Shown piece after piece: positions 3,239 through 59,853 of a stretch of DNA of 64,000 nt. The position numbers were made by a program, and so were the translations under genes. The notes under the pieces are model-generated. The model did no database searches. It saw nothing but the letters and a program-made list of their open reading frames with translations, and was not told the DNA's origin. Numbering within the stretch: the stretch's first letter is position 1; the number at the start of each line of letters is the position of its first letter. Source of the stretch: an uncultured Solirubrobacteraceae bacterium (GTDB taxonomy: Bacteria; Actinomycetota; Thermoleophilia; Solirubrobacterales; Solirubrobacteraceae); NCBI GenBank assembly GCA_963720975.1, contig CAVRHJ010000007.1:417995-481994 (forward strand), in the 5' to 3' direction.

Positions 3239-4570
3239 CTATCCGCTGCGGCTGAAGGCGCTGGGGGTGAGCACGGCGGCCAGATCGCTCGCCAGACGCT
3301 GCGCCTCGCCAGCGCTGAGCGTGGCCGTCGTCACACGGATGCCGGGCGCGGCGCCCGCGAGGCGGAATGGCGCTCCGGGTGCGACGACCCAACCACGCTG
3401 CATCAGCGCGCTCACGGCGGCGGCCTCGTCGTGAACCGGGATCCATACGTTCAGCCCGGATGCTCCGTGCGCGCGGACCCCCCCGCGCTCCAGCAGCCCG
3501 AGCAGCCTCTGGCGTCGCTCGGCGTACTCCTCAGCGGCCTGCTCGACGATCGCGCGCGCGTCCGGATCGGTCCACAGTCCGAGCACGAGCGTCTGCAGGA
3601 TGTGGCTGACCCAGCCGGGGCCGCACTGCTGTCGCCGCTGCACGCGGGCGATCGTCTCGGCGTCGCCCGCGAGCACCGCGAGGCGCAGATCGGGCCCGAG
3701 CGCCTTGGCGACCGAGCGCGTGGCCGCCCAGTGCAGACGAGCGGCCGCGAGCGTGTGCAGCTCGCTGCCGGCCACTGGCCCCAGGTGGTCGTCCTCGACC
3801 ACCAGTATCTCCGGGAAGTCGGCCAGGACCTTGCTCAGCTCACGTGCCCGCGTGGCGTCGAGCGCCGCGCCGGTGGGGTTCTGCCCGCGGGGGGTGAGGA
3901 TCGCAGCGACGGCGCCCCGCGAGAGCGCCCCGCGCAAATCGCCGGGGAGCATCCCGCGGTCATCGACCGGCACGGGCTCGAGCAGCAGGCCCTGTGCGCG
4001 CAGCAGGTCGTACAGCGCCGCGTAGCCGGGGTTCTCGACAGCCACCCGATCGCCCGGACGCACGTGCGCCTGAAGGACCCGCTCGATCGCGTCGAGAGCG
4101 CCGCTGACGATGCACAGGTCCTCAGCGGGGATGCCGTCGGCGGACAGCTGCGAGCGCGCGAGCTCGAGCAGCTGTGGCACGACCTGCGGCTCTCCGTACA
4201 GGCGGACGGGCAGCTCCGAGCGCTCCAGCGCGCGGCCGAGATTAGGTAGCAGCGCCGGGTCGGGATTGCCGCGCGAGAGGTCGCGGGCCCCGGGCGGCAC
4301 CGGCAGCGGCGACCACGATGATCCGATCGGCGGCCCCTGTCCGATGCGCGTTCCGCGCCGCGGCTCGGTCACCACGACGCCGCGGCGGCGCAGCTCAGCA
4401 AGGGCGGCTGCGACGGTCACCGGGCTGAGCCCGACATCGGCGGCCAGGCGCCGGACGGACGGGAGTCGCTGACCCGGCGAGAGCGCCCCGCTGGCCACGT
4501 CGGCCTCGATGCCGCGGACGAGCTCCGCTGCGCTGTCCGCCGTAATTCGATACTGTCTCAGTTCAGTCAC
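3239..4570 (-). CDS. MocR/GabR-family regulator (GntR HTH plus PLP aminotransferase-like domain)
   Basis: LPSVRRLAADVGLSPVTV HTH; ENPGY, QNPTG and VVEDDH motifs; SVAK lysine motif. Confidence 0.9.
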   Translation of the reverse strand: MTELRQYRITADSAAELVRGIEADVASGALSPGQRLPSVRRLAADVGLSPVTVAAALAELRRRGVVVTEPRRGTRIGQGPPIGSSWSPLPVPPGARDLSRGNPDPALLPNLGRALERSELPVRLYGEPQVVPQLLELARSQLSADGIPAEDLCIVSGALDAIERVLQAHVRPGDRVAVENPGYAALYDLLRAQGLLLEPVPVDDRGMLPGDLRGALSRGAVAAILTPRGQNPTGAALDATRARELSKVLADFPEILVVEDDHLGPVAGSELHTLAAARLHWAATRSVAKALGPDLRLAVLAGDAETIARVQRRQQCGPGWVSHILQTLVLGLWTDPDARAIVEQAAEEYAERRQRLLGLLERGGVRAHGASGLNVWIPVHDEAAAVSALMQRGWVVAPGAPFRLAGAAPGIRVTTATLSAGEAQRLASDLAAVLTPSAFSRSG

Positions 4571-9614: not shown

Positions 9615-11732
9615 CTATTGCGGGTCGACGTCCACGCTGAAGCTCACCTCGGTGTGCCCGCGGGCTCCGGCCACGCGTTGCACGGCCTCCCCCACCGCCG
9701 CCACCGCGGGGCGACGCTCCTGCGCCTTCACCATCAGCATCTGGCGCTCGCGCCCCCGCAGACGGAACAGGGCCGCGGGTCCGAGGATGTTGGCGTCGAT
9801 GCCTGCGAGCGCCTGTGCGAGGCAGTCGCCCAGCGCCACGGCTGCGTCGCGGGCATGGTGGGCCTCGACGGCCGAGCAGACGATCCTCACGAGGTGCGAG
9901 AAGGGCGGGTACCGTAGCGCTCGCCGGCGCTCGAGCTCGCCGCTGAGAAAGCCATCGCTGTCGTGACGCGCCGCATGGAGGATCGCGCGTGCGTCGGGCG
10001 CGATCGTCTGCACGAGCACGCGCCCGTGGCCGCCTCGCCCGGCGCGGCCTGCGAGCTGGGATATCAACGAGAAGGTGCGCTCCTCGGCGCGGAAATCGGG
10101 GAAGCGCAGCGTGGCGTCGGCGTCGAGCACCACCCCGAGACTCACGTCGGGGAAGTCGTGGCCCTTGGCGACCATCTGCGTACCGATCAGCACCCCGCAT
10201 TCGGCCGCCTCGAAGCGACGCAGCAGCCCGCCCACTCCAGTGTCATCATCGGCCGCTCGAGGAGCGCCATTTGAGCGCGCCTCGCCGGCGGGCACGCCGA
10301 GTGCCGCCGCGCCGGGCGCGCCGGCCGCGTCCGCGATCGCATCCGCGTCCAAACGGAAGACGGGAAACGCGCCGTCGTCGAGGACATGCTGCAGCTCGTG
10401 CTGCAGGCGTTCGGTGCCCGCTCCGTGGCGGGCGACCGCGGTCGAGGAGCAGTCGCCGCAGCGCGTCGGCATCGCCTCGCGGTGGCCACAGTGATGGCAG
10501 GCGACGTAGCCGCCTGAGCGGTGGAGCACGAGCGCTACGTCGCAGTCCGGGCAGCTCCAAACTCGCCCGCACGAGCGGCAGGAGAGGAAGTTCGACCAGC
10601 CGCGCCGGTTGAGCAGCACGATCGCCTTGCCGCGTGCGGCGCGCACCTCGGCTAGCGCCTGGGCGGTGAGCGGATGTAGCCCCTGGTTCTCGCCGCGCAT
10701 GTCGAGCACGTGCACGGCCGGCAGCGGACGACCGTCGACACGGCGTGGAAGCACGCAAGCGGGCAGGCGCAGGACGCTCTCCGGGCGCGGCGTCGCGCTG
10801 CCCAGAACCAAGACCGCGCCGCAGCGCTCGGCACGCTCGGCGGCGACGTCCCGGGCGTCGTAGCGTGGATCGCCCTCGTGCTTGTAGGAGGCGTCGTGCT
10901 CCTCGTCGACGACGATCAGGCCGAGGTCCGCGATCGGCGCGAACACCGCCGATCGGGGACCGACGCACACCCGCGCGTCTCCCTCGCGCAGGCGGCGCCA
11001 CTCGGCGTAGCGCTGTGCGGGCGTCAGACGCGAGTGCAGCACCGCGACGGTGTCGCCGAAGCGTTCCATGAAGCGCCCGACGATCTGCGGCGTCAGGGCG
11101 ATCTCGGGCACGAGAATGATCGCTCCGCGCCCCTGCTGCAGGGCGGCGTGCGCGGCCTGCAGGTAGACCTCTGTCTTGCCCGATCCGGTCACCCCGTGCA
11201 GCAGGCGCTGCTCTGCCCGCTGCGCGGCGATCGCCGCGACCAACGGCTCGAGCGCCAGCTGCTGATCGTCGGTCAGCTGCGGCGGGTGAGGGCTGCGCGC
11301 GCCCACCGTCAGATGGCGCGGACGCGCGACCGCGCGGCGTTTGCGCCCGCTCAGCCTGCGCGTGGCCTCCGGCGGCAGAACGAGACCGAGTGCGCGCGCT
11401 GTCGTCGAGCAGTACTCGGCGGCGATCCATTCCGCCAGCGCGACCAGATCGACGGGTACTCCGAGCTCGAGCGCCCGCAGCGGCGCGAGCAGCTTCTCCT
11501 CGGCGATCTCGCTGCTGTCGGCGAGGCCGACGACGACCCCGAGCACCTCGCGGCGGCCGAACGGCACGACCAGCATCGAGCCGACGTCCACCCCTCCACG
11601 CAACTCGTCCGGGAGGCGGTAGTCAAACGGCCCGCGCAGCGACCGGGTGGTGGTCATCGGCTCGATCCGAGCGATCCTCGCCGACGCCGCGAGCCCGGGG
11701 GGCTCGCCCTCGAGCTGAGCGGTGGTGGACAC
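9615..11732 (-). CDS. priA: Primosomal protein N'
   Basis: GVTGSGKT, DEEH, SATP, four CxxC, GTQMVAKGHDFP and QLAGRAGR. Confidence 0.96.
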   Translation of the reverse strand: MSTTAQLEGEPPGLAASARIARIEPMTTTRSLRGPFDYRLPDELRGGVDVGSMLVVPFGRREVLGVVVGLADSSEIAEEKLLAPLRALELGVPVDLVALAEWIAAEYCSTTARALGLVLPPEATRRLSGRKRRAVARPRHLTVGARSPHPPQLTDDQQLALEPLVAAIAAQRAEQRLLHGVTGSGKTEVYLQAAHAALQQGRGAIILVPEIALTPQIVGRFMERFGDTVAVLHSRLTPAQRYAEWRRLREGDARVCVGPRSAVFAPIADLGLIVVDEEHDASYKHEGDPRYDARDVAAERAERCGAVLVLGSATPRPESVLRLPACVLPRRVDGRPLPAVHVLDMRGENQGLHPLTAQALAEVRAARGKAIVLLNRRGWSNFLSCRSCGRVWSCPDCDVALVLHRSGGYVACHHCGHREAMPTRCGDCSSTAVARHGAGTERLQHELQHVLDDGAFPVFRLDADAIADAAGAPGAAALGVPAGEARSNGAPRAADDDTGVGGLLRRFEAAECGVLIGTQMVAKGHDFPDVSLGVVLDADATLRFPDFRAEERTFSLISQLAGRAGRGGHGRVLVQTIAPDARAILHAARHDSDGFLSGELERRRALRYPPFSHLVRIVCSAVEAHHARDAAVALGDCLAQALAGIDANILGPAALFRLRGRERQMLMVKAQERRPAVAAVGEAVQRVAGARGHTEVSFSVDVDPQ

Positions 11733-11757
11733 CGCCTGAGCCTAGAGTGCTACCCGG

Positions 11758-12975
11758 TCAGAGACCGCAAGCCGAGCGCAGCGCGTCTGCCTTGTCCGTG
11801 CGCTCCCACGTGAAGTCCTGATCGTCGCGGCCGAAGTGGCCGTACGCGGCGGTCTTCTGGTAGATCGGGCGGTGCAGTTTGAGCTCCTCCCTGAAGGCTC
11901 CCGGACGTAGGTCGAAGACCTGATCGACCGCCCGCGCGATCTGACCGCGGGTGCGACCCGCTCGCTCGGTGCCGAACGTCTCGACCATTACAGACACCGG
12001 GTGCGCCACGCCGATCGCGTATGCGACCTGCACTTCGGCGCGCTCGGCCAGCCCAGCCGCGACGATGTTCTTGGCCACCCAGCGTGCCGCGTAGGCGGCC
12101 GAGCGATCGACCTTCGAAGGGTCCTTGCCGGAGAACGCGCCGCCGCCGTGACGGGCCATCCCGCCGTAGGTGTCGACGATGATCTTGCGTCCGGTCAGCC
12201 CAGCGTCACCGACCGGCCCGCCGATCACGAAACGGCCGGTCGGGTTGACGAGGAAGTTCTTGCGCAGCTTGTCCGCGTCGTACAGCTCGCCTGGCAGGAT
12301 CGGCTCGACGACGTGCTGCCAGAGGTCCTCGGGAATCCGCGACTCCACGCCTTCTGCGTGCTGAGTGGAGATCAAGAGCTTTTCGATCTCGACCGGCTTG
12401 CCGTCTCGGTAGCGCACGCTGACCTGCGTCTTGCCGTCCGGGCGCAGGTAATCGAGCGTGTCATCCTTGCGAACCGCCGCCAAACGCTCGGCGAGACGAT
12501 GCGCGAGCGAGATCGGCAGCGGCATCAACGTCTCTGTCTCGCTTGTCGCGTAGCCAAACATCATGCCCTGGTCTCCGGCGCCGGCGACGTCGAGCTCGTC
12601 TTTGTCGCTCGCATCGGTGCGCGTCTCGTAGGCCTTGTCGACCCCCTGTGCGATGTCGCTCGACTGCTTGTCGATCGCGTTGAGCACCGCGCATGAGTCC
12701 GCCGAGAAGCCGAGGTCGGCGTCGGTGTAGCCGATCTTGCGCACGGTCTCGCGCGCGACCTCCTGGATGTCTACGTAGGTGTCGGTGGAGATCTCCCCGG
12801 AGACCACGATCAGGCCGGTGTTCACGAGCGTCTCGCACGCCACGCGCCCGTAGGGATCATCGGTCAGGACGGCGTCGAGAACCCCGTCGGAGATCTGGTC
12901 GGCGATCTTGTCCGGATGGCCCTCCGTGACCGACTCGGAGGTGAACAGGAACTCGTTCTCGGTTAGCTCAGTCAT
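11758..12975 (-). CDS. metK: S-adenosylmethionine synthetase
   Basis: [30 protein letters not shown] and GGGAFSGKD. Confidence 0.98.
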
Positions 12976-13052
12976 GTCTTGCTGGATCAGCTCCGGAGTA
13001 GTCGCGCGGCACGGGTGCTCGCCGCGGGCAGGTTGGCGAAAGTCGCAGAAGT

Positions 13053-14405
13053 CTATGCGGCGCGGGCACGGGCGCGCTGGCCGCGCTCGACGAAGTCGAT
13101 GATCAGCGGCACGCCGTCCATCCCATAGCGGGCGCGCAGCCGGTTCTCGACGAAGTACGCGTAGTCGCGCGTGACTCGTGTACGCGAGTTGACCTGGATC
13201 GCGAAGCGCGGCGGGCGCTCGCCGATCTGGGTCATGTAGATCAGTTTCAGGCGATGCCCGCCGGCGCCACGGCGGGTGCCGACCGGCGGCTGGCGCGCCT
13301 GGACGGTCTCGGACAGGAAGCGGTTGAGCTCCGGGGTGGGGATGCGCCCGGACATGCGGTCGCCCAGCGCAATCGCCTCGCTCAGCAGGCGCGAGGCGTG
13401 CCTGCCGGTCTTTGCGCTGACGGTCAGGACGCGCGGACGCAGCCGCAGCTTTTCGGCCACGCGCGCTCGCTCGTGCTCGAGATCGACACCAACGCCCTCA
13501 GCATCCTCGCCGCGCTCCTGCATGTCCCACTTGTTCAGCACGATCGCGGTGGCGCACCCAGCCTTCATCGCGAGCTCGGCGACGCGCAGATCCTGTGCGG
13601 TGACGCCGTCCCCGGCGTCGCACACGACGAGCGCGACATCCGCGCGCTCGGCCGCGCGCTGGGAGCGCAGCGCCGTGTAGTACTCGACTGAGTCGGCGAC
13701 CTTCGACTGGCGGCGCATGCCGGCGGTGTCGACGAGGATCAGCTTTCGCTCACCGACCATCAAAGGCGTGTCGATCGCGTCCCGCGTCGTGCCGGCGAGA
13801 TCGGAGACGATCACGCGCTCCTCGCCGAGAAAGCGGTTCACCAGCGAGGACTTGCCGACGTTGGGCCGACCGATCACGGCCAGCCGGACCGTGTCGTCCG
13901 GCTCTGCGACATCGCCCGCCGGCAGCAGCTCGACTATCCGATCGAGCAGATCCCCCGAGCCGAGGCCCTGCGCCGCGGATACCGCCATCGGCTCGCCGAG
14001 GCCGAGCCGATGAAACTCACTCGCGAGCGGCACCTCGACGACGCTGTCGCACTTGTTGGCAGCGACGATCGTCGGCAGCGGCGCGCGGCGTAGGAGGTCC
14101 GCCATCTCCTCATCGCCCGGCCGGACCCCCGCGCGCGCGTCGACGACCAGCACCCCGACGTCGGCGTCGGCGATTCCCGCCCGGGCCTGGTCGCGGATTG
14201 AGCCGGCAAGCGGATCTTCGTCCTGGAAGTCCACGCCCCCGGTGTCGATCAGCGTGAAGCGGCGCCCGTTCCACTCGCAGTCGAGCTCCTTGCGATCGCG
14301 GGTCACTCCCGGGCGCTCGTGCACGACCGCCTCGCGGGTGCCCGTCAGACGGTTGATCAGCGAGGACTTCCCCACGTTTGGATATCCGACAATCGCGACC
14401 TTCAT
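13053..14405 (-). CDS. der: Ribosome biogenesis GTPase Der (EngA)
   Basis: Two tandem G domains ([16 protein letters not shown] and [16 protein letters not shown]) plus KH-like tail. Confidence 0.97.
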
Positions 14406-14442
14406 CAGGCCAGTATGACTGGCGTGGGCGCCTGCTCGGACC

Positions 14443-14801
14443 TCAGGCGAGCGTGGAGCCGGGGAGGCCGAGGATCAACGACAGTGCTCGGTCGATCTCG
14501 CCGAGGGTCTCCGGCGCGAGTGAGCCAAGGTGGCGCAGCATTCCTGCTCGGGAGACCGAGCGAATAGCACGGCAGATCGCACGACTCTGTCGATCGACGC
14601 CCGCCAGCCGCGGCACCTCCGGACGTAGCGCCGAGGGAGCACGCGAGCTCGACAGCGGCACGACCACGATCAGATCGTCGGCTGTGCCGCTGTTCAGCGC
14701 GTCGACGGAGACCACGACCGCCGGACGATTCTTCCCCGGCTCGCCATCCTTCCCGCCCCAAACGAGACGAGCCACACCTCGCCGCGGCGCGGTTCAGTCA
14801 A
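14443..14801 (-). pseudogene. mazF: MazF/PemK toxin (MazF7-like) with 1-nt frameshift
   Basis: TTG 14801 gives MTEPRRGEVWLVSFGAG; the rest (KDGEPGKNRPAVVVSV...LSLILGLP) is in the -1 frame. Span is 359 nt, and one G appears to be missing at 14752-14759. Confidence 0.85.
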
Positions 14802-14901
14802 GGCCATCGACCAGAACGCTCTCCCATACACGGTCCTCGACGCCGACATCGCCGCTCTGGGCGTCGCGAACGCTGGCCTCGCGCTCGGAGCGCCAGATCG
14901 C
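14794..14901 (-). pseudogene. mazE: C-terminal fragment of a MazE7-like antitoxin with no start codon
   Basis: AIWRSEREASVRDAQSGDVGVEDRVWESVLVDGLD*, ending in overlap with the toxin start. An in-frame stop lies a few codons upstream and no N-terminal DNA-binding half is present. Confidence 0.7.
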
Positions 14902-14938
14902 TATGGCCCGGCAATAGCACTATGGCCCGGCGATAGCG
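14900..14938. repeat. 19-bp tandem repeat, each unit an imperfect palindrome
   Basis: ctatggcccggcaatagca / ctatggcccggcgatagcg, with (G)CTAT-N9-ATAGC symmetry. Confidence 0.85.
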
Positions 14939-15584
14939 ACCTCATTAGCTCGACGATGCGCGCGACGACCTGCTCGACGCTCAGGCCGGTGGTGTCGAGC
15001 GTGACGGCGTCGGCTGCGGAGTGCAGGGGACTGTGCGTGCGCGTGCTGTCGCGCTCGTCGCGCATGGCCTGCTCGGCGAGCACCATCGCGACGTCGGCGC
15101 CGAGCTCGCGTGCGCGCCGCGACGCCCGCTCGCGCGGGTCGGCCGTAAGGAACACCTTGAGCTCGGCGTCAGGCGCGACCACGGTGCCGATGTCGCGCCC
15201 CTCGGCGACCCAGTTGCCGCTGGCAATCAGCTCGCGCTGCTTGGCGACGAGCGCCTCGCGTACGTCAGGGTCGGCAGCCAGGACGGACGCGGCATCGCTG
15301 ACCTCGGGGGCACGGATCGCGTCGGTCACATCACGCCCGTCGAGCAGCACCCGGCGCGACTCGGCAGTCGGCCCGCCGCCGGGATCGATCGCGACCCCTC
15401 GAGCGATCTCACCGAAGATCGCCGGGCGCTGCGGCAGCACGCCCGACCCCTGCTCGAGCGCCGCCAGCGCCACGCTGCGGTACATCGCGCCACTGTCGAG
15501 GAAGGTAAAGCCCAGCTGACCCGCGAGCGCCCGCGCAACCGTTGACTTGCCCGCGCCGGCGGGACCGTCGATCGCTACGAGCAC
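14901..15584 (-). CDS. cmk: Cytidylate kinase
   Basis: AIDGPAGAGKST, LDSGAMYR, EGRDIGTVV and RDERDSTR. Confidence 0.96.
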   Translation of the reverse strand: MLVAIDGPAGAGKSTVARALAGQLGFTFLDSGAMYRSVALAALEQGSGVLPQRPAIFGEIARGVAIDPGGGPTAESRRVLLDGRDVTDAIRAPEVSDAASVLAADPDVREALVAKQRELIASGNWVAEGRDIGTVVAPDAELKVFLTADPRERASRRARELGADVAMVLAEQAMRDERDSTRTHSPLHSAADAVTLDTTGLSVEQVVARIVELMRSLSPGHSAIAGP

Positions 15585-16870
15585 AGCTTCGAGAGGTCCT
15601 CGACGAAGCCCGGGTAGGACACCGCGGCGGCCTCCATGCCGAGGACCTCGACCCCCTCGCGCGAGGCGAGCCCGGCGACCGCGCCCAGCATCGCCATGCG
15701 GTGGTCGCCGTGGGCGTCGATCGTGCCGCCGCGCAGGCCACCGGTGCCGCGAACCTGGAAACCGTCCTCGCTGGCCTCGATCTCGGCACCGAGCCCGCGC
15801 AGCCCGTCGACGACCTCCGCGATCCGGTCTGTCTCCTTGACGCGCAGCTCCTGCGCACCGCGCACGACCGTCTCACCCTCGGCGAAGCAGCCGAGCAGTG
15901 CGACCAGCGGTAGCTCGTCGATCGCAAGCGGGACCTCGTCGGGCTCGACGGTCGTCCCCTCGAGCGACCCGTGGGCGACGTCGAGGTCGCTGACCGGCTC
16001 CTCGCCGACGAGCTCGCCGCTCTCGTCCTCGAGATCGCCGAGCACGATGCCGCGCATGCGGCGCACGATCCGCAGGAAGCCCGTACGCGTCCAGTTCACA
16101 CCGACATCGCTGATCAACAGCCGAGAGCCGGGCACGAGTACGCAGGCGGCGATCATGAACGCAACCGAGCTCGGGTCGCCTGGTACACGAACGCGGTCGA
16201 GCAGCAGCTCATCGGTGTTCACGACCGTGACGTGTGTGCCGTTGCGATGGATTGTCACGCCCGCGCGCAGCAGCATCCGCTCGGTGTGATCGCGGCTGCG
16301 GGCCGGCTCGCCAACCGTCGTGGCGCCGTCGGCGGCGAGCGCCGCAAGCAGGATGCACGACTTGACCTGGGCGCTGGCGACGTCGAGCTCGTAGGAGATC
16401 GCGCGCAGCCGCGCGCCACGAACTTCGAGCGGCGTGAAACGCCCCTCGCGCGCCTGTAGATCCGCCCCCATCTGGCTCAGTGGCGTGGCGATTCGATTGA
16501 CCGGGCGACGGCGGATCGACTCGTCGCCGTCGAGCACGAACGAGCGCCCCTCCTGTGCCGCGAGCCAGCCGGGGAGTAGTCGCAGCAGTGTGCCGGCGTT
16601 GCCGACGTCGATCGTGGCGTCGGGCTCGCGCGCCTCGCGCAGACCAGTGCCGCGGATCACCAGATCCTCGCCGTGGATCTCCACGAGCGCCCCGAGTGCG
16701 CGCACCGCATCGAGTGTCGAGCTGGTGTCGGCGGCGTGTAGATAGCGCTCGATCCGCACTGGTTCGGAGGCCATCGCGCCGAGCAGCGCGGCGCGATGCG
16801 AGATCGACTTGTCGGCCGGCGCGGTTATCTCGCCGGAAAGTCCGCGGGCGGGCTCGAAGCGCATGTTCAT
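15575..16870 (-). CDS. aroA: 3-phosphoshikimate 1-carboxyvinyltransferase (EPSP synthase)
   Basis: DKSISHRA, GNAGT, SAQVKS, RDHTERML, ELRVKETDR and DHRMAM. Start placed at 16870. Confidence 0.96.
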   Translation of the reverse strand: MNMRFEPARGLSGEITAPADKSISHRAALLGAMASEPVRIERYLHAADTSSTLDAVRALGALVEIHGEDLVIRGTGLREAREPDATIDVGNAGTLLRLLPGWLAAQEGRSFVLDGDESIRRRPVNRIATPLSQMGADLQAREGRFTPLEVRGARLRAISYELDVASAQVKSCILLAALAADGATTVGEPARSRDHTERMLLRAGVTIHRNGTHVTVVNTDELLLDRVRVPGDPSSVAFMIAACVLVPGSRLLISDVGVNWTRTGFLRIVRRMRGIVLGDLEDESGELVGEEPVSDLDVAHGSLEGTTVEPDEVPLAIDELPLVALLGCFAEGETVVRGAQELRVKETDRIAEVVDGLRGLGAEIEASEDGFQVRGTGGLRGGTIDAHGDHRMAMLGAVAGLASREGVEVLGMEAAAVSYPGFVEDLSKLCS

Positions 16871-16880
16871 CGGGCAGCCC

Positions 16881-18047
16881 TCATGCTCGCACGACTGGGA
16901 AACCGAGGCCGGCGACGAGCTGGCGCGCGCGCTCGAATGGCTCCTCGCCTGCGATCCACAGCGACACGACACCCTGGCTGTTGTCCTGTGACGGGGACAG
17001 CACCATGTCGAGGATGTTCACGCCGGCGTCACCGAGCGCGAGTGCGATCTCGGCGATCACCCCCGGACGGTTGGGCACCGACGCGCGCAGCTCGCTAACC
17101 GACTCCCCCTCCGCGCCACCGGCGAGGCCGGCGCCGAGCAGCGCCTCGTGGTCGACGCGCGCACGCTCGTTCCAGCTCGTCAGCGCCACAGCCTGGCCCG
17201 TGGCGAGCCACGCGCGCACCTCCTGCAGACGCACTGCGAACTCGTCGATCCCGGCGATCAGCGCCTCGCGGTTGGACATGTAGATGTCGGTCCAGATCGC
17301 GCTGTTGGCGCCGGCAACGCGCGTCGCGTCGCGGAAGCTCGGGCCAACGGCCGGCAGCCGCTCGAACGTCCCGCCCGGCCGTTCGTCTGCCGCCGCAGGC
17401 TCCCCGTCGCTCGCTGCGGGGCTTTCAGCGCGGGGAGCGAGCAGTTCGGCTGCCTGGGCGACGAGCAGGTTCGCGAGCACGTGCGGAAGGTGCGAGACGC
17501 ATCCCATCAGCCGGTCGTGTGTCTCGGCGTCGATCGCCTGCGGCCGCGCTCCGAAGCGGCTCAGCAGCCGGTGTAGGCGCTCGTAGAGCACGCCGGCCGT
17601 ACTCCCTTTCGCCGGCGTCAGGTACCACGTAGAACCGTCGAATAGATCCTCGCGGGCATGCTCGACGCCAGCGGTCTCGGCGCCTGCCAGCGGGTGTCCG
17701 CCGACGAAGCGCTCATCGCAGCCGGCATCGGTACCCTGAAGGGCACAGGCGAGCACACGCTTGGTCGAGCCGACGTCGGTGACGACGCAGTCCGCCCCGG
17801 CGCCGGCGAGCGCCAGGCCCACCGTCTCAGCGAGCGCCCCCACGGGGGTCGCGACGAACACCACGTCGGCGCCGTCGACAGCCGCGGCTACATCCGCGGC
17901 CTGTGTGCCGATCGCGCCCAGCTCCAGCGCCCTCGCGCGCACGCGCTCGTCCGGGTCATATCCGCAAACCTCGGCGTCAGCGCGAGCTCGCGCGGCCAGG
18001 CCGATCGAGCCGCCGATCAGCCCGACGCCGAGGATCGCCACCTTCAA
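16881..18047 (-). CDS. tyrA: Prephenate/arogenate dehydrogenase with C-terminal ACT domain
   Basis: GVGLIGGS, TDVGSTK, FVGGHPLAG, HDRLMGCVSHLPH; ACT motif VPNRPGVIA. Confidence 0.93.
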   Translation of the reverse strand: MKVAILGVGLIGGSIGLAARARADAEVCGYDPDERVRARALELGAIGTQAADVAAAVDGADVVFVATPVGALAETVGLALAGAGADCVVTDVGSTKRVLACALQGTDAGCDERFVGGHPLAGAETAGVEHAREDLFDGSTWYLTPAKGSTAGVLYERLHRLLSRFGARPQAIDAETHDRLMGCVSHLPHVLANLLVAQAAELLAPRAESPAASDGEPAAADERPGGTFERLPAVGPSFRDATRVAGANSAIWTDIYMSNREALIAGIDEFAVRLQEVRAWLATGQAVALTSWNERARVDHEALLGAGLAGGAEGESVSELRASVPNRPGVIAEIALALGDAGVNILDMVLSPSQDNSQGVVSLWIAGEEPFERARQLVAGLGFPVVRA

Positions 18048-27017: not shown

Positions 27018-28616
27018 TCATCGCGCGAGAGCCTCTCGGATCACCGGACGCTTGGCCGCCGCGACCTCGTCCAGGCGGCGTACCGGCGTGCTGTAGGGGG
27101 CGGCGCGCGCGAGCTCGGGGTTCTCGGCGGCCTCCTTCAGGATCGCGGCGATCGCGTCGGCGAAGGCGTCGAGCGTCTCCTTGGTCTCGGTCTCGGTCGG
27201 CTCGACCATCAGCGCCTCGTCGACGAGCAACGGGAAGTACACGGTAGGCGGATGGAAGCCGAAGTCGAGCAAGCGCTTAGCGAGGTCGAGCGTCTTGATC
27301 TGCAGGGCGCGCTTCATCGGCCCGCCTGACAGCACGAACTCGTGCATACACAGCTCGCCGTAGGCGAGCTGCAGATACTCCGCGACGCCGCGCTCCTTCA
27401 GGCGTGCCAGCAGGTAGTTAGCGTTCAGCACTGCCGTCTCGGACGCATCTCTCAGCCCGTCGCCGCCGAGCGAGCAGATGTAGGCGTAGGAGCGGACGAA
27501 GCAGCCGTAGTTGCCGTGGAAGCCGCGCAGGCGCCCGATCGACTTCGAGCCGACACGACCGTGCCCGTGGTCGAGGTCGAACGTCCCGTCGGCTTCCCGA
27601 GCGACGATCGGCAACGGCAGGAACGGGGCGATGCGCTCGGACACGGCGATCGGCCCGGAGCCCGGGCCGCCGCCACCGTGCGGCTGGGTGAAGGACTTGT
27701 GCAGGTTGAAGTGCACGATGTCGAAGCCCATGTCGCCGGGCCGAGAGAGCCCCATGACGGCGTTGAGGTTGGCGCCGTCGTAGTACAGCGTCGCGCCCAC
27801 GCCGTGGACGATCTCGGCGATCTCCGCGATGTTGGGGTCGAACAGGCCGAGCGTGTTCGGGTTTGTCAGCATCAGGCACGCGACGTCCTCGTCGGCTTTC
27901 GCGCGCAGATCGTCGACGTCGACGCCACCGTGCTCGTTGGTGGCGACCTTGACGACTTCCAGCCCGGCCATCGTGACGGTCGCGGGGTTGGTGCCGTGGG
28001 CGGTGTCCGGGGTCAGGACCTTGTGGCGCGCCTGGCCTCGGTCCTCGTGGTAGGCGCGCGTCAGCAGCACCCCGGCGAGCTCGCCATGCGAGCCGGCGGA
28101 CGGCTGCAGCGAGACGTGCGGCAGGCCGGCGATCTCCGACAGCGCGCCCTGCAGGTTCCACATCAGCTCGAGTGCGCCCTGTGCGCGCTCGGGGTCCTGC
28201 AGCGGGTGCAGCCGCGAGTGTCCGGGTAGCGCGGCGACGCGCTCGTGCAGTCGCGGGTTGTGCTTCATCGTGCACGAGCCGAGCGGGTAGAAGCCCGAGT
28301 CGAGGTCGAAGTTGCGCTTCGACAGACCGACGTAATGGCGCACGATCTCCGGCTCGGAGACCTCAGGCAGACGCGGCGGCGCCGCGCGGCGGAAGCGCTC
28401 GGGGAGCAGCTCGCCGATGTCGACCGCGGGCACGTCGATCTCCGGGCACGCGAACGCGCGCCGCCCGGGCGCGCCCTTCTGGAAGATCGTCCGCGCGGGC
28501 TCTCGCTGCAGCGGCGTCGCGCCCACGGCGACTGCGCCTCCTGGCCTCGTCCCGTTCGGGTGGTGGGATTCGATGCCCGGGTCGGAATGGAGGTGGTTCT
28601 CGTCGATCGGGCTCAC
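27018..28616 (-). CDS. gcvPB: Glycine dehydrogenase (decarboxylating) subunit 2
   Basis: YPLGSCTMKHNP, HGTNPA, YYDGAN and HFNLHKSF. GTG 28616 overlaps the gcvPA TGA. Confidence 0.95.
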   Translation of the reverse strand: MSPIDENHLHSDPGIESHHPNGTRPGGAVAVGATPLQREPARTIFQKGAPGRRAFACPEIDVPAVDIGELLPERFRRAAPPRLPEVSEPEIVRHYVGLSKRNFDLDSGFYPLGSCTMKHNPRLHERVAALPGHSRLHPLQDPERAQGALELMWNLQGALSEIAGLPHVSLQPSAGSHGELAGVLLTRAYHEDRGQARHKVLTPDTAHGTNPATVTMAGLEVVKVATNEHGGVDVDDLRAKADEDVACLMLTNPNTLGLFDPNIAEIAEIVHGVGATLYYDGANLNAVMGLSRPGDMGFDIVHFNLHKSFTQPHGGGGPGSGPIAVSERIAPFLPLPIVAREADGTFDLDHGHGRVGSKSIGRLRGFHGNYGCFVRSYAYICSLGGDGLRDASETAVLNANYLLARLKERGVAEYLQLAYGELCMHEFVLSGGPMKRALQIKTLDLAKRLLDFGFHPPTVYFPLLVDEALMVEPTETETKETLDAFADAIAAILKEAAENPELARAAPYSTPVRRLDEVAAAKRPVIREALAR

Positions 28617-30106
28617 CTGCGCCCCGCGATCGGGTATGCGGGCACCGTCGCCTCGCTGTCTGATGTCCGAGCGGTAGCTGCGACCGCCGCTGCGAGCACG
28701 TCGGCCAGCCGGTCGATATCGGCGCGCGAGCGCCGCTCGGTGATCGCTACGAGCAGCCCGCCGCGGTCCTCTGCGCGCCCGGTGAGCGCGTGCAGGTCGA
28801 TCCCCGGGTTGACCCCCTGGCTGGTGCAACGGCTGCGCACGGAGGCGACGTCGAGAGGGCTGCCGGTGGGGTCGGTCAGTCGCACAGCGAACTCGCGCAC
28901 GACCGGCTGGCTGTGCAGCTTCTCCACGCCGTCGAGCGCTGTGAGCGTCTCGCGCGCGTAGTGGGTGCGGTTCAGCAGCAGCTCGCCGAGCTCGACGATC
29001 CCGCGCCGGCCGAGCCAGCTCAGGTAGACGACACCGGCGAGCGCGTTCAGCGCCTGCGAGGTGCAGATGTTCGACGTGGCCTTCTCGCGGCGGATGTGCT
29101 GCTCGCGCGTCTGCAGCGTCAGCACGAAGCCGCGCCGACCATCGACGTCTACGGTCTCCCCCGCGATCCGTCCGGGCATCCGCCGCAGGTACTCCTCGCG
29201 CGCGGCGAACAGGCCGAACGACGGCCCGCCGAAGTCGAGGCGATTGCCGAGCGCCTGACCCTCACCGACCGCGACGTCGACGCCGCAGTCGCCCGGCGGG
29301 GCGAGGATGCCCAGCGTGATCGGGTCGACCTGCGCGACGACGATCGGTACGCGCCCACCGTTGCCGTTAGCGCCGACTTCGCCCGCGCCGGGGTCGGCTG
29401 ACGCACCGGCAGCCTTGGCGGCGGCGCTCAGCGCGGCGGCGTCCTCGACCGCGCCGTAGAAGTTCGGTTGGGCGAAGATCGCTGCGCTCGTCTCGCCGTC
29501 GATCGCCGCGACCCATGCCTCGGGATCGGTGACGCCGTCGCGGAGCGGCACCTCGACGACCTCCATGCCGTAGCCGTGGGCATTGGTCCGCAGCGTCTGG
29601 AGCGAATGGGGATGCAGTCCGGCGCTCACGACCAGCCGCCGACCGCCGTTGTGGAGCTTCGCCAGATAGCCGGCCGCGGCGACCGCCGAGGGGCCCTCGT
29701 AGACCGACGCATTCGAGACCGGCAGCCCGGTCAGCTCGGAGATCGCGGTCTGGTACTCGAACATCACCTGCAGCCCACCCTGGGAGATCTCCGGCTGGTA
29801 GGGCGTGTACGGCGTGAGGAACTCCGAGCGCTCCATCAGCATGTCGATCAGCGCGGGGACGTAGTGGTCGTACATCCCGGCGCCGATGAAGCTCAGCTCG
29901 TCCTCGGCGCTGGTGTTACGCGCGGCGAGCGCGCGCAGGTGCTCGTAGACGTCCTGCTCGGGGAGCCCGTCGGGCAGCTCGAGCGCGCGGCCGAGGCGCA
30001 CCGCGTCGGGAATCTGGCGGTCGAAGATCTCCTGCAGCGAGCCGACGCCGATCGCCGCGAGCATCGCGTCGAGGTCCTGCGGGGTGATGGCGGTGTAGCG
30101 GCTCAA
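28613..30106 (-). CDS. gcvPA: Glycine dehydrogenase (decarboxylating) subunit 1
   Basis: FIGAGMYDH, TPYTPYQPEISQG and REQHIRREKATSNICT. Confidence 0.96.
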   Translation of the reverse strand: MSRYTAITPQDLDAMLAAIGVGSLQEIFDRQIPDAVRLGRALELPDGLPEQDVYEHLRALAARNTSAEDELSFIGAGMYDHYVPALIDMLMERSEFLTPYTPYQPEISQGGLQVMFEYQTAISELTGLPVSNASVYEGPSAVAAAGYLAKLHNGGRRLVVSAGLHPHSLQTLRTNAHGYGMEVVEVPLRDGVTDPEAWVAAIDGETSAAIFAQPNFYGAVEDAAALSAAAKAAGASADPGAGEVGANGNGGRVPIVVAQVDPITLGILAPPGDCGVDVAVGEGQALGNRLDFGGPSFGLFAAREEYLRRMPGRIAGETVDVDGRRGFVLTLQTREQHIRREKATSNICTSQALNALAGVVYLSWLGRRGIVELGELLLNRTHYARETLTALDGVEKLHSQPVVREFAVRLTDPTGSPLDVASVRSRCTSQGVNPGIDLHALTGRAEDRGGLLVAITERRSRADIDRLADVLAAAVAATARTSDSEATVPAYPIAGRR

Positions 30107-36968: not shown

Positions 36969-38302
36969 GCACCCACCAGCGCGCGCCCCAGCTCGTCGAC
37001 GTCACCGGCGCCCATCACCACGCACACGTCTCCCTCCCTGAGCATCGCCTGCAGCACCGGCTCGGCGTCGGCGAACGCGGGCAGCCAGTACACCGGCCTT
37101 CCGCCAGACGCGTCGGCGGTCGCCTCGGCGATCAGCAGCCCACTCACACCTGGATGATCCTCGGCACGCTCGCGCGCCGGGTACACATCCAGCACGACAG
37201 TCTCGTCGGCGAGCGCCAACGCGCGACCGAACTCCCTGGCGAGCAGCGCAGTGCGCGAGAACAGATGTGGCTGGAACACGGCCACGAGGCGCTCGTGCGG
37301 GAACGTTCGCGCCGCCTGCAGCGTGGCGGTGACCTCCGTCGGGTGGTGGGCGTAGTCGTCGTACACGAGCGCGCCGCGCGTGCTCGTGCCGAGCGCCTGG
37401 AAGCGCCGGCCGGCGCCGTGGAAGCCCGCCAGCCCGGCGATCGCCCGCTCAGGGTCGGCGCCCGCGATCCTTGCTGCCTCAAGCGCGCCGGTCGCGTTGA
37501 GCGCGTTGTGCGCGCCGGGGACCACCAGCGAGACCTCGTTCCCGCGCCACTGGAAACGCGAGCCGCCGGCGCTCAGCGTGACCGCGGACGTGTCGTACGG
37601 CGTCAGCGGCCCGTCGCGCAGCTCGAGCAGCTCCGGGCGATCCCACACGACGGCCGACGCCGGCCCCGTCAGGAACTCCCTGAACGCGTCGCGCAGCTGC
37701 GCCAGTGAGGCGAACGTCGCGTGGTGCTCCAGCTCGACGTTCGTCAGCAGCGCAATCTCGACGCTCAGGCTGAGCATCGAGCGGTCCGACTCGTCCGCCT
37801 CGACCACCAGCCATTCGCCCTCGCCCCACTCCGCGTTCGCCAGGCCGTCGCCGATCGGCGCCCCGATCAGCCATCCGGGCCGCATCCCGGCTGCCCGCAG
37901 GGCATGGGCGATCATCGATGCCGTCGTCGTCTTGCCGTGCGTGCCGGCGACCGCGATCGTGCGCCGCATCGCGGTCAACTCGCCCAGCAGCTCCGCACGC
38001 GAGCGCTCCGCGATGCCGCGCTCTCGGGCGGCGCGTCGCTCGACGTTCTCGCCGCCGACGGCTGAGGAGTAAACGAGCTCGATGCCGTCCCCCGCGGGGA
38101 GGTTCTCCGCGCGGTGACCGATCGCAGCGTCGAGCACGCCGTCGGCGGCGAGCCGCCGCAGATAAGGGCCGCCGCGGGCGTCCGAGCCGCTGACCTCGGC
38201 GCCCAGGGCGTGCGTCGCGCGCGCATAGCCGCTCATGCCAGCGCCGCCCACACCGACGAAATGCACGCGCCGCCCGCTCCACGGGCGCTCCTGCGCACTC
38301 AT
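36965..38302 (-). CDS. murC: UDP-N-acetylmuramate--L-alanine ligase
   Basis: VGVGGAGMS, AGTHGKTTT, EADESD, DDYAHHPTE and FQPH.FSRT. Confidence 0.96.
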   Translation of the reverse strand: MSAQERPWSGRRVHFVGVGGAGMSGYARATHALGAEVSGSDARGGPYLRRLAADGVLDAAIGHRAENLPAGDGIELVYSSAVGGENVERRAARERGIAERSRAELLGELTAMRRTIAVAGTHGKTTTASMIAHALRAAGMRPGWLIGAPIGDGLANAEWGEGEWLVVEADESDRSMLSLSVEIALLTNVELEHHATFASLAQLRDAFREFLTGPASAVVWDRPELLELRDGPLTPYDTSAVTLSAGGSRFQWRGNEVSLVVPGAHNALNATGALEAARIAGADPERAIAGLAGFHGAGRRFQALGTSTRGALVYDDYAHHPTEVTATLQAARTFPHERLVAVFQPHLFSRTALLAREFGRALALADETVVLDVYPARERAEDHPGVSGLLIAEATADASGGRPVYWLPAFADAEPVLQAMLREGDVCVVMGAGDVDELGRALVGA

Positions 38303-39369
38303 CGCCGAGCGGCCTGCAGCAGCTCAGCAGCGACGTCATTCGCCGCGTCCGGTCGGGCCAGCGCCGCCGCCGCCGCCGCCATCGCCGCCAGCCGTCGGCG
38401 GTCGCCGAGCAGCGCGGCCACTTCGCCGCCGAGCCGCGTGGCGCTCAGCTCGGCGTCCTGGATCACGACGGCGGCGTTCGCGTCGGCCATCCAGCGAGCG
38501 TTCGTGCTCTGGTGGTTGGCGGAGGCGTGCGGATACGGGATCAGGATCGCCGGCAGCCCGTGCGCGGCCAGCTCGAACACGGATCCCCCGGAGCGCGCCA
38601 CCGCCAGGTCGGCGGCCTCGAGCGCGTCGGCGAAGTCGGCGAGCTCGAGGTACTCGCGCAGGTCATATCCTGGCGGCAGCTGCAACGCGGCGAGCTCGGC
38701 GTAGTCGCGCCGACCGCACACGTGCAGCACGCGGAACGGTCCGCCGGCGAGCCCCTCGACGGCCGCCTGGTTGATCGAGCGGGCCCCCAGCGAGCCGCCG
38801 AACACGAGCACGCACGTCTCATCCGGCTCGAGCTCAAAGCGCTCACGCACCTGCTCACGCTCGTGCGCGTACAGCGGTATCGGCCTGCCGGTCACGCGGT
38901 AGCGCGGCCCGTCGCGCCCGGCGAGCGCAAACGCCAGACACACGCGTCGCGCAAACGGGGCCAGCAGGCGGTTGGTCAAGCCGAGATGGCTGTCCGCCTC
39001 GCTCAGCACGAGCGGGATCCGCAGGCTCAGCGCGGCCAGCCCGACCGGCCCCGCCACGTAGCCTCCACCGCCCATCACGGCGTCCGGCTCCAGCCGCGCC
39101 AGCAGTCGGCGTGCGCGCGGCACCGCCGCGGCGGCCAGCGCCAGCGCGCGCGCAGCGCGCACGAGGCTCGTGCGGCTCAGCCCCTCGACGGCGATCGTGT
39201 GCAGCTCGAAGCCGGCCGCCGGCACGAGCTGCGCCTCGGCGCGACCGGCGCCGATGAACGTCACTTCTGCTCCCTCAGCCCGCAGCGCGTCCGCGACCGC
39301 CAGCGCCGGTACCACGTGCCCGGCGGTCCCGCCGGCGGCTATCACGATCCTCTTCGGCGCTCCGTTCAC
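38299..39369 (-). CDS. murG: MurG glycosyltransferase
   Basis: AGGTAGHVVP, GGYVAGP, FGGSLGA, ARSGG and HQSTNA. Start estimated at GTG 39369. Confidence 0.94.
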   Translation of the reverse strand: MNGAPKRIVIAAGGTAGHVVPALAVADALRAEGAEVTFIGAGRAEAQLVPAAGFELHTIAVEGLSRTSLVRAARALALAAAAVPRARRLLARLEPDAVMGGGGYVAGPVGLAALSLRIPLVLSEADSHLGLTNRLLAPFARRVCLAFALAGRDGPRYRVTGRPIPLYAHEREQVRERFELEPDETCVLVFGGSLGARSINQAAVEGLAGGPFRVLHVCGRRDYAELAALQLPPGYDLREYLELADFADALEAADLAVARSGGSVFELAAHGLPAILIPYPHASANHQSTNARWMADANAAVVIQDAELSATRLGGEVAALLGDRRRLAAMAAAAAALARPDAANDVAAELLQAARR

Positions 39370-40660
39370 CGCCCCATCGTGCCGGTTCGGGTGGACGGGC
39401 GTCGGCGCGCCCGGAGCCCGTGCGACGCTTGCTGCGGCGCGCCGGAGCGACAGCGCGGACGTGCCCGGTGGCACCCGAGGCGACGTTCAGCAGCAGACCC
39501 ATCGCGGCCAGCATCACGATCAAGCTGCTCGAGCCGTAGGACACGAACGGCAGCGGCACGCCGGTCAGCGGCGCCAGCCCGAGCACAGCAAAAGTGTTCA
39601 ACGCCGCCTGCGAGACGATCAGCGAGGTCACGCCGACGGCGATCAGCGCGCTGTACAGGCTGCGTGCAGCCTTCGCCGCGCGTAGGCCCGCATACGCGAT
39701 CAGCCCGTACAGGAACAGCAGCGCGAACACCCCGACCACGCCGAGCTCCTCGGCGATCACCGCGAGGATGAAGTCCGTCGGCGCCTCCGGCAGGTAGAAG
39801 ATCTTCTGCACCGACTCGCCCGGGCCGACCCCGAACAGGCCGCCCGAGCCGATCGCGATCTGACCCTGTACCGCCTGAAAGCCACTGGAGGACGCGTGCG
39901 CCCAGGGGTCCAGAAACGACGTCAGCCGCGCGCGCGCGTACGGTTTCACGAGCGCGTACAGGAACACCAGGCCGATCACCGTGCCGCCGATCAGCGCAAG
40001 CTTCTGCATCGGCATCCCCGCCGCGATCAGCATCACGCCGATCGTGAACGTGATCACCAGCGCGGTGCCCAGGTCGGGCTCGCTGAACACCAGCACCGCC
40101 GCCGAGCCGACGACCAGCAGCAGCGGTCGCGTCAGCTCGCGCAGGTCGTGAACGCTGCGCGGGCGCTTCGCCAGCAGCGTCGCCGAGTACAGCACCAGCG
40201 CGATCTTCATCAACTCTGAGGGCTCGAACTGGAAGGGGCCGGGCCCGATCCAGCGACGGGCGCCGTTGATGCTCACGCCTACGTGCGGGACGTGCACGGC
40301 GAGCACCAGCACGAACGACACCACCAGCAGCGGCGCCGTGATGCTGTGCACTTTCGCGACCCCGTCGCGCGCCAGAACCCGCATCACGACCAGGCCGACC
40401 GCGCCGTAGGAGACGAACTTGATCAGATAACCGCTGCCGTAACCGTGCCCCTGCAGCAGCGTCGTGGCCGAGGAAGCGCTGTACACCATCACCGCGCCGA
40501 ACGCCAGCAGGCACATCGTCGCCGTCACCAGGATGCGGTGCTCGAGCGACTGCCCCGCGCCCGCCGCGGCCGCGGCTCTCCGCCCCGAGCCGGCCGTCCC
40601 GCGCATCTTCCGACCAGCTTTCCGGGTCGGCGGGCGAGGCATCCTTCCGGCTGATGGCAT
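39275..40660 (-). CDS. ftsW: SEDS protein FtsW
   Basis: MVYSAS, GARRWI, FEPSELMK, DLGT, LPEAPTDFI and GVPLPFVSYGSSS. Confidence 0.95.
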   Translation of the reverse strand: MPSAGRMPRPPTRKAGRKMRGTAGSGRRAAAAAGAGQSLEHRILVTATMCLLAFGAVMVYSASSATTLLQGHGYGSGYLIKFVSYGAVGLVVMRVLARDGVAKVHSITAPLLVVSFVLVLAVHVPHVGVSINGARRWIGPGPFQFEPSELMKIALVLYSATLLAKRPRSVHDLRELTRPLLLVVGSAAVLVFSEPDLGTALVITFTIGVMLIAAGMPMQKLALIGGTVIGLVFLYALVKPYARARLTSFLDPWAHASSSGFQAVQGQIAIGSGGLFGVGPGESVQKIFYLPEAPTDFILAVIAEELGVVGVFALLFLYGLIAYAGLRAAKAARSLYSALIAVGVTSLIVSQAALNTFAVLGLAPLTGVPLPFVSYGSSSLIVMLAAMGLLLNVASGATGHVRAVAPARRSKRRTGSGRADARPPEPARWGGERSAEEDRDSRRRDRRARGTGAGGRGRAAG

Positions 40661-40684
40661 TCCCGCTCACTTCGACGCCGGCCG

Positions 40685-53317: not shown

Positions 53318-53321
<4 letters not shown>
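52512..53321 (-). CDS. trpA: Tryptophan synthase alpha chain
   Basis: [34 protein letters not shown] and [12 protein letters not shown] overlap with trpB. Confidence 0.96.
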
Positions 53322-54585
<1,264 letters not shown>

Positions 54586-54589
<4 letters not shown>

Positions 54590-55368
54590 GCCGGCCGACC
54601 GATCGTTGCCGGTTCGGAGTGAGACACGGGCCGCGGCTGCAGCACCGCGTCGAAGAACGCGCGCAGCTTCGCCGGGTCCTTATGGCCGGGTGCAGCCTCC
54701 GTCCCGCTCGCGGTGTCGACCGCGTAGGGGCGCACCACATCGATCGCCTCGGCGACGTTGGCCGCGCTTAGCCCGCCGCTCAGGATCAGCGCAACGCGTG
54801 AGCGTCGGCTCGCCACGAGCCCCCAGTCGAACGTCTCACCCGTGCCTCCGCGCATCCCCTGCCGAGCGGTCTGCCTGGAGCGCGCATCGAGCAGGTGGAA
54901 GTCCACGTGGAAGCGCTCCAGATCACGCACGTCACCCGGCCCCGACACCTGCGTCGCCTTGATGATCCGTGCGCCCGTCCGTCGTGCTACCTCCGAGCAG
55001 AATGCCGGCCCCTCATCGCCGTGCAGCTGAATCAGGCTGAGACCCAGATCCTCGCTGACGGCGACGATCTCCGACAGCGGAGCATTGACGAACACGCCGC
55101 ACAGCTCGACCCGGCGACGGACGCCCGCGACCACCAGCTGCGCCTGTTCGAGCGAGCATCTGCGCGGGCTGTCCTCGTAGAAGATCATGCCCAGCGCCCA
55201 CGCCCCGAGCTCGACCGCCAGCTCAGCGTCAGGAAGGTTGGTGATCCCGCAGATCTTGACCCGCGCCGAGCTGACCTCCTGGCGGTCGGGCTCGACGCCG
55301 GTCGAAACCCCAGCCGGGACGTCGACCGAGGCCTCGGTGACGTATACAGGCTCAGGCGTGGTCGTCAT
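54586..55368 (-). CDS. trpF: Phosphoribosylanthranilate isomerase
   Basis: [28 protein letters not shown] and VDTASG. Start uncertain. Confidence 0.93.
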
Positions 55369-55491
55369 TGCCCCAACGGTAGCGCCAGCGCGCCAGCCGC
55401 CGCACCGACCACGCTTCGCCTCGGGGAACTCGGGGGCACTCATCGCGTCCCCGAGCGCCGAGTCAGCCCTCTGGCGTGAGCCCTCTTGGCA

Positions 55492-56703: not shown

Positions 56704-56760
56704 GGGAGGAGAGGATGAGCGGTGGCCATCAACGCCATCTAAAGCTCTGCGCGAGCCTAT

Positions 56761-57593: not shown

Positions 57594-57597
<4 letters not shown>
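56761..57597 (-). CDS. trpC: Indole-3-glycerol phosphate synthase
   Basis: IAEFKRRSPS, SILTE, LRKDF, LVEVH, GINNRDL and SESGI. Confidence 0.96.
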
Positions 57598-58675
<1,078 letters not shown>

Positions 58676-58719
58676 GTGATCTCGCCGCAAGATTATCTCC
58701 CCCGGTGAACCATCTCTCA

Positions 58720-58784
58720 TGTGACCGCCGCCCCGGTCACCATCGCCCCAGTGTGGCCGCCGCCCCCGGTCACCCTCGCCCCCA
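58720..58784. repeat. About 32-bp imperfect tandem repeat
   Basis: tgtgaccgccgccccggtcaccatcgcccca / tgtggccgccgcccccggtcaccctcgccccca. Confidence 0.8.
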
Positions 58785-58791
58785 CAATGAA

Positions 58792-58817
58792 CGCTGTACA
58801 GCAATGGCTATACAGCG
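58792..58817. promoter_or_regulatory. Inverted repeat, candidate operator between divergent trpD and SnoaL genes
   Basis: CGCTGTACAGC-aatg-GCTATACAGCG, 1 mismatch. Confidence 0.5.

Positions 58818-59292: not shown

Positions 59293-59853
<561 letters not shown>

Follow-up and report, generated by a model that had tools for sequence, protein, structure and literature searches.

A probable young pseudogene pair derived from a MazEF7-like toxin-antitoxin operon between cmk and der in an uncultured Solirubrobacteraceae bacterium

The minus strand of the analysed window, a stretch of 64 kb, contains at positions 14443-14901 a broken toxin gene of the MazF/PemK type, together with the final 35 codons of an antitoxin gene of the MazE7 type. 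The two pieces are best explained as a young pseudogene pair, what is left of a chromosomal MazE/MazF (MazEF7-like) operon of type II, a reading to which a probability of about 0.88 is assigned. A decayed mazEF7-like module between cmk and der had been proposed in a first-pass annotation made from the letters alone, and the proposal was borne out by alignment to an intact sister allele, hereafter L001, and by matches in the PDB and Pfam collections.

The minus-strand genes of the region are aroA (15575-16972), cmk, the toxin-antitoxin (TA) remnant, der and metK (11758-12975). Both immediate neighbours of the remnant are intact, and each has a full-length match in L001. The cmk gene (14901..15584, minus strand) encodes a cytidylate kinase of 227 aa, which matches Pfam PF02224 with E 2e-64 over positions 1-210 of the 211 in the profile; der (engA; 13053..14405, minus strand) encodes a double-GTPase of 450 aa, with two MMR_HSR1 domains and a KH_dom-like domain in Pfam. 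The GC content of the window is 70.5%, and no tRNA genes or Rfam families were found at threshold by scanning its whole length. Other genes include rpe, rsmB, a fmt-like gene, def, priA, metK and tyrA, a gcvP gene for a two-subunit glycine dehydrogenase at 27018-30106, murG and ftsW at 38299-40666, and trpB, trpF and trpE at 53318-61423; a small zinc-ribbon ORF (1598-1849) is located between rpe and rsmB.

Reading of positions 14380-14980 in three frames placed the toxin ATG at 14807-14805 on the minus strand. Toxin codons 1-19, MALTEPRRGEVWLVSFGAG, are contained in one frame (14755..14807, minus strand), and codons 20-121, beginning with KDGEPGKNRPAVVVSV and followed by the stop codon at 14445-14443, are read one base back (14443..14754, minus strand). 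The displacement of N-terminus and body by one frame, on which the first-pass annotation was founded, was reproduced, and the shift corresponds to a missing C at 14755. When one base is restored, the toxin becomes a gapless protein of 121 aa, matching the Pfam model PF02452 (PemK_toxin) from position 1 to position 109 of 109, with E 2e-19 and 70.2 bits against a cut-off of 23.1 bits; the match holds only with the base put back. The repaired toxin also aligns to the structures 7DU4 and 5WYG of M. tuberculosis MazF7 with E 1e-35 and no gap at the shift point, 66 of 115 residues (57%) being identical, while weaker PDB matches, with E about 1e-3, were obtained for 4MDX, 4ME7 and 5CK9. A protein search with the repaired toxin returned 1209 homologues, the best of which, 98% identical and 121 aa long, is located on the 2.59-Mb contig of L001. 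Residues R28 and S53 fall in family-invariant columns (77/78 homologues in each case). A catalytic Arg and Ser51 have been described in MazF7 (PMC7354611), and R28 and S53, which are both retained in the toxin body, are predicted from the alignment to be the counterparts of this pair. The toxin ORF of the window is interrupted: past 14755 the original frame continues for 18 out-of-frame codons and stops at 14694, and the gene falls into two parts, a 37-aa product and a body that cannot be translated. The deletion, at codon 19/20, cuts the toxin off before Arg28 and Ser53.

The antitoxin remnant (14794..14901, minus strand) is composed of the C-terminal 35 codons, AIWRSEREASVRDAQSGDVGVEDRVWESVLVDGLD, at 14901-14797, and a stop codon at 14796-14794; its end and the start of the toxin gene overlap by 14 nt. 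The absence of a start codon, noticed at first sight, was found again, as the open stretch of 35 codons contains no ATG, GTG or TTG. Against the 83-residue MazE7 chain 6A6X_C the fragment aligns with residues 48-82 only (E 0.0035, 17/35 identical), and its counterpart in the L001 antitoxin is residues 44-78, with 33 of 35 positions identical. These matches, along with those of the repaired toxin, give a measured basis to the resemblance to MazF7 and MazE7 that had initially been proposed. In MazE7 the N-terminal part is an RHH domain that binds DNA, and the C-terminal part, which is disordered, binds the toxin (PMC9477884); from this layout, the surviving piece is the toxin-binding tail alone, recognizable by its identity to both MazE7 and the L001 antitoxin, while the RHH domain has gone with codons 1-43, and the start codon and promoter are missing as well. 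No Pfam or NCBIfam model matches this antitoxin, even in its full-length form. The only Pfam match of the fragment, to mono-CXXC (E 0.12), was dismissed as noise. No paralogous mazEF genes or operators were found elsewhere in the 64-kb window.

L001, which is the same record as L048, is the MAG MFD05841.bin.1.51 of an uncultured Solirubrobacteraceae bacterium, about 94% identical to the window in the flanking genes. Its gene order is that of the window, tyrA-aroA-cmk-(78-aa antitoxin)-(121-aa PemK toxin)-der-metK-priA, with the module intact, and its 78-aa antitoxin matches MazE7 over its full length, at residues 9-82 (E 5.7e-15). In a global alignment of 7 kb, at about 94% identity, the only indels which distinguish the window from L001 are two deletions, of 176 bp and 1 bp. 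The latter is located at 14755 (minus strand), where the window has a single C and the relatives have CC (GGGGCGGG and GGGGCCGGG, respectively). Metagenome contigs from X1, X2 and X7 also carry an extra base at 14752-14756 when compared to the window; together with L001, four independent sequences contain the additional toxin base. The junction of the larger deletion, at 14898..14902 (minus strand), features a 3-bp GCG microhomology. The deletion begins exactly at the cmk stop codon, leaving its TAG in place, as defined by the L001 alignments and by the contigs of X3 and X7, which diverge from the window at 14900/14901 and carry on into undeleted antitoxin sequence; past this point, the X7 contig encodes the missing part of the antitoxin (...AREREQE). 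According to L001, the lost 176 bp contained a degenerate third copy of a 19-bp repeat, described below, two operator boxes, the -10 element TATAAT, the ATG and antitoxin codons 1-43. The loss of the DNA-binding half of the antitoxin by deletion, already suspected, can be stated to the base, and extends to the promoter, both operator boxes and the start codon. The third lesion is a substitution: codon 14542..14544 (minus strand) is GGA (Gly89) in the window, where both L001 and metagenome X2 have CGA (Arg), the differing base being 14544. Of 78 distinct homologues, 77 have Arg at residue 89, and R89G is private to the window. Since L001 and the metagenome contigs show the unmutated states, all three lesions are private to the window.

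The distribution of the family was surveyed by scanning one genome per species, which yielded 223 loci, 80 of which were kept. In all of the 80 kept loci a full antitoxin of about 78 aa is located directly upstream of the toxin, usually overlapping it. Synteny of cmk-der in relatives, recommended initially as a check, proved informative: an intact module is found between the two genes in ten other Solirubrobacteraceae (L002, L005, L008, L018, L023, L028, L044, L048, L050 and L056), L001 being included as L048. The toxin ORF is open in 10/10 of these genomes, and no decayed copy other than that of the window was seen. The toxins of the ten syntenic genomes are each other's nearest relatives, and vertical inheritance is suggested on this ground; the sequence relationships fit one ancestral insertion, inherited vertically within a clade of soil Solirubrobacteraceae. 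In two of these genomes, L028 (MFD00731.bin.2.49) and L050 (MFD01231.bin.2.57), der, metK and cmk are matched by tblastn in fragments only; the L028 toxin contains a locally scrambled stretch, PLVQFTRASRLSDPEV, and the L028 antitoxin matches residues 1-43 only. The fragmentation of L028 and L050 looks like the outcome of residual indel errors of Nanopore MAGs rather than of decay.

The region upstream of the antitoxin was compared across 74 distinct loci, with the start-proximal GCGCTA serving as anchor. The resulting consensus, T[GA]GCGC[CT]A-N5-TGGCGCTA[TC]A[CA]T-about 9 nt-ATG, or in full T[GA]GCGC[CT]A-N5-TGGCGCTAyAmT-N9-ATG, contains two T[GA]GCGC[CT]A boxes 13 bp apart, the proximal one overlapping a TAnnnT -10 element which ends about 9 nt from the ATG. 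In L001 this arrangement is located at 3741-3780, the two-box region being at 3741-3770, and the same layout is found upstream of the antitoxins in L002-L081. We infer that this conserved element is a candidate operator and promoter of the MazEF7-like family, and the short distance between -10 element and ATG suggests that the mRNA of the intact antitoxin would be leaderless or nearly so. A scan for sigma-70 and terminator consensus sequences gave no call in the window, nor in the intact L001, and thus speaks neither for nor against the TA promoter, whose assignment is based on the conserved TAnnnT 9 nt from the ATG. In L008, L018, L023, L044, L050 and L056 the distal operator box (ATAGCGCC) contains the cmk stop codon TAG, and the end of cmk and the TA operator share bases in most syntenic genomes. 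A search for T[GA]GCGC[CT]A-N5-TGGCGCTA with up to 2 mismatches found no two-box operator in the window, in which a single degenerate box, TAGTGCTA, is left in place of the autoregulatory operator upstream of the antitoxin.

This box is located at the junction (14915..14922, minus strand) between two 19-bp repeats, detected by TRF at 14901-14937 with a period of 19 bp, 1.9 copies and 94% matches. Unit 1, GCTATCGCCGGGCCATAGT, at 14919..14937 (minus strand), has a perfect copy in L001; unit 2, GCTATTGCCGGGCCATAGC, at 14900..14918 (minus strand), holds the cmk stop codon TAG at 14903-14901. By pattern search the unit is absent elsewhere in the 64 kb (0.02 chance matches expected), and only the window and L001 have the repeats. 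The tandem repeat described in the first-pass annotation is thus present; the palindromic structure attributed to its units applies in perfect form (GCTAT...ATAGC, 5-bp arms) to unit 2 only, unit 1 having ATAGT, and the repeats are not intergenic, as they form the last 12 codons of cmk (SLSPGHSAIAGP) and its stop. The suggestion that they may be old operators was partly upheld. In L001 the same junction reads TAGCGCTA, a perfect family box generated by two identical units (ATAGC|GCTAT), and both changes that lead from it to the TAGTGCTA of the window are synonymous in cmk; the family operator itself, on the other hand, was contained in the deleted DNA. In L001 the degenerate third repeat copy runs into the distal operator box. 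The repeats have the look of operator-region duplications specific to this lineage; the main operators themselves are lost.

A further conserved element, GTCATACTGGCC, resembling a -10 sequence, is located at 14408..14419 (minus strand), and 2 nt separate it from the ATG of der downstream. The window has it at 12/12 or 11/12 bases, and so do 7 of 8 syntenic loci listed (L002, L008, L018, L023, L044, L048 and L056; it is absent in L005), while the remaining spacer varies. Judging from this conservation, the element is probably der's own promoter, of the leaderless type. Such a promoter would explain why the loss of the TA promoter was tolerated.

Silent divergence from L001 differs along the region. 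Values of dS are 0.039 for the toxin and 0.042 for the antitoxin fragment, as compared to 0.14 for cmk, 0.15 for metK, 0.18 for aroA and 0.38 for der; mismatches number 9/470 in the remnant and 344/5941 in the flanks (Fisher p 1.3e-4). Silent divergence of the remnant is far below that of the flanks, which indicates that the decay is young. A neutral pseudogene dating from the split of the two lineages would exceed the divergence of the flanks, and the ancestor that the TA segment shares with L001 must therefore be more recent. A TA segment of roughly 0.6 kb was probably gained via homologous exchange, and decayed afterwards. Positions from about 14396 to 15018 of the window are 97-98.5% identical to L001, with 91% for der and 94% for cmk and aroA (flanks 10443-17418). 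This mosaic suggests that either the TA segment was recently transferred between lineages through homologous exchange or a divergent der allele was imported. GC3 is 0.77-0.78 in the remnant and 0.86-0.88 in the flanks; the low value of the remnant is typical of a mobile-type module.

By homology, the intact form would produce, from a nearly leaderless transcript, a 78-aa antitoxin formed by an RHH domain and a disordered toxin-binding tail. This antitoxin would repress the promoter through the boxes, the proximal of which the -10 element overlaps, and would wrap and neutralise a dimer of the 121-aa MazF endoribonuclease, whose gene overlaps that of the antitoxin by 14 nt; free MazF would cleave RNA through Arg28 and Ser53. 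In the window, the 1-nt deletion truncates the toxin, in which the invariant Arg89 has in addition become Gly, and a microhomology-mediated deletion of 176 bp has stripped the antitoxin of promoter, operators, start codon and RHH domain. No functional product is expected from the remnant. The flanking essential genes are untouched, and der appears to keep a promoter of its own. As to the order of the lesions, loss of the toxin first is slightly favoured over the reverse, being the classical safe route and fitting the two hits in the toxin. Overexpression of MazF7 of M. tuberculosis did not inhibit the growth of BCG (PMC9477884), and the deletion by itself removes both promoter and translational coupling; for these reasons, the reverse order is only somewhat less likely.

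The lesions are inferred to be biological rather than assembly errors, and the frameshift at 14755 is very probably a genuine mutation. The 1-nt deletion was read from one assembly. Two run searches returned only soil metagenomes with a low share of the sampled words, 0.19 at most, whose contigs belong to related strains; no record with an exact match to the Der or Cmk protein of the window was found, and an exact search of JGI metagenome contigs retrieved neither the deletion junction nor the frameshift allele. The closest relatives are MAGs obtained from Nanopore reads only and polished with Medaka, and in the related MAG catalogue the residual Nanopore errors concentrate in homopolymers longer than 6 (PMC12313526). 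If the window shares this Nanopore-only origin, residual indels are possible, although this one falls in a pair of Cs rather than in a long homopolymer.

An error of base calling, polishing or assembly at 14755, the strongest of the rival explanations and still an improbable one, would leave a full-length orphan MazF, with neither cognate antitoxin nor operator nor promoter of its own, transcribed only via read-through from cmk and maybe attenuated by R89G. Several observations are compatible with such an error: the single C is known from one assembly, the relatives derive from Nanopore data only, G runs flank the site (GGGGCGGG), and the toxin ORF is open over its whole length but for one base. 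An unneutralised homologue might also be tolerated, given the behaviour of MazF7 in BCG mentioned above. Against it, 14755 is the sole small indel in the 7 kb aligned to L001, and falls within a gene whose partner has lost 176 bp, an event impossible as a base-calling error; a second private change, R89G, affects an invariant residue of the same protein, and the reported context of errors, homopolymers longer than 6, differs from a CC pair. Nor were other split genes found in the window. Ten suspicious overlapping ORF pairs found elsewhere in it all have complete Pfam domains, and the full length is present in aroA, cmk, der and metK. A scan for further frameshifts by GC3 frame plot was abandoned as too noisy, with sense and antisense being confused, and was replaced by this check of Pfam completeness. 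If true, the error would imply an unneutralised orphan MazF in nature, flanked by two essential genes and exposed to read-through, and tolerated by means of R89G attenuation or of an intrinsically weak toxicity of the subfamily.

Two other explanations assume that one of the pieces is still expressed, and both are very unlikely. The toxin could be made by recoding, either by restoring the frame near 14755, through a -1 frameshift of the ribosome or slippage in transcription, or by starting at an internal GTG at 14775, which would yield a MazF of 110 aa whose first beta-strand is remodelled. The -1 frame is indeed open from 14793 on, such that slippage at any of codons 5-19 would lead to an almost normal protein, and the 110-aa ORF (14443-14775) exists and retains Arg28 and Ser53. 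Yet the site features neither an X XXY YYZ slippery heptamer nor a long homopolymer, and recoding is not a trait of the family, as the toxin is read in a single frame in all relatives. The GTG has no spaced Shine-Dalgarno sequence, the ORF starting from it does not include the invariant residues P6, R8, G9, E10, W12 and L13 of strand beta-1, and the promoter has been lost. Just as doubtful is that the antitoxin tail is made as a stand-alone anti-MazF peptide, directed against a paralogous toxin elsewhere in the genome, its translation beginning at a non-canonical start codon or reaching it from cmk by read-through or frameshifting. No stop interrupts the 35 codons, which are nearly identical to L001, the fragment starts directly at the cmk stop, and in MazE antitoxins it is the C-terminal tail which binds the toxin (PMC9477884). 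The conservation is, however, accounted for by the youth of the pseudogene; the tail has no start codon of any of the three kinds searched, it is in a frame different from that of cmk, so that read-through of the stop would not yield it, and the 64 kb contain neither a paralogous mazF nor a two-box operator. A Cmk-antitoxin fusion was rejected: a change in repeat number could bring it about only with a third 19-bp copy, an event of which there is no sign.

Among known systems, the locus read as a young pseudogene pair is most readily compared to MazEF7 of M. tuberculosis (Rv2063/Rv2063A; complex 6A6X, toxin 5WYG and 7DU4). Besides the 57% identity of the toxin over 115 residues and the full-length alignment of the L001 antitoxin, which is of the RHH type with a C-terminal toxin-binding tail, the two have in common the overlap of antitoxin and toxin genes and a Ser in place of the usual catalytic Thr (PMC7354611). 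They differ in the host, here a soil actinobacterium of the Solirubrobacteraceae, in the location between cmk and der, and in the state of the genes, which in the window form a pseudogene pair, with a frameshift and R89G in the toxin and an antitoxin devoid of promoter, start and RHH domain. The PemK/MazF fold, the catalytic Arg in the beta1-beta2 region and the upstream position of the antitoxin are also found in EndoA/EndoAI of B. subtilis, whose antitoxin is of the RHH type, and in MazEF of E. coli, and the conserved operator of the intact relatives implies autoregulation as in those systems. Sequence similarity to them is distant only, they are intact, and the DNA-binding domain of E. coli MazE is of the AbrB type, not RHH. 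Decayed chromosomal TA loci, such as the TA pseudogenes of reduced mycobacterial genomes, combine a small inactivating toxin lesion with a deletion of the antitoxin, the neighbours being undamaged. Unlike other decayed TA loci, the present one has an intact sister allele 98% identical to it, and its decay can be dated as recent.

TA pseudogenes are common, and by itself the locus is a case of ordinary gene decay, of little weight. It is nonetheless a clean natural experiment, in which the intact sister allele fixes each lesion to the base, and the confinement of the lesions to the module indicates that a TA pair located between essential genes is lost only by small, precise events. Its modest added value comes from a reconstruction exact to the base, an operator consensus for the whole family and the definition of a cmk-mazEF-der clade. 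The consensus proposed for operator and leaderless promoter of the MazEF7-like family, for which no description of a MazE7 operator was found in the literature consulted, is testable.
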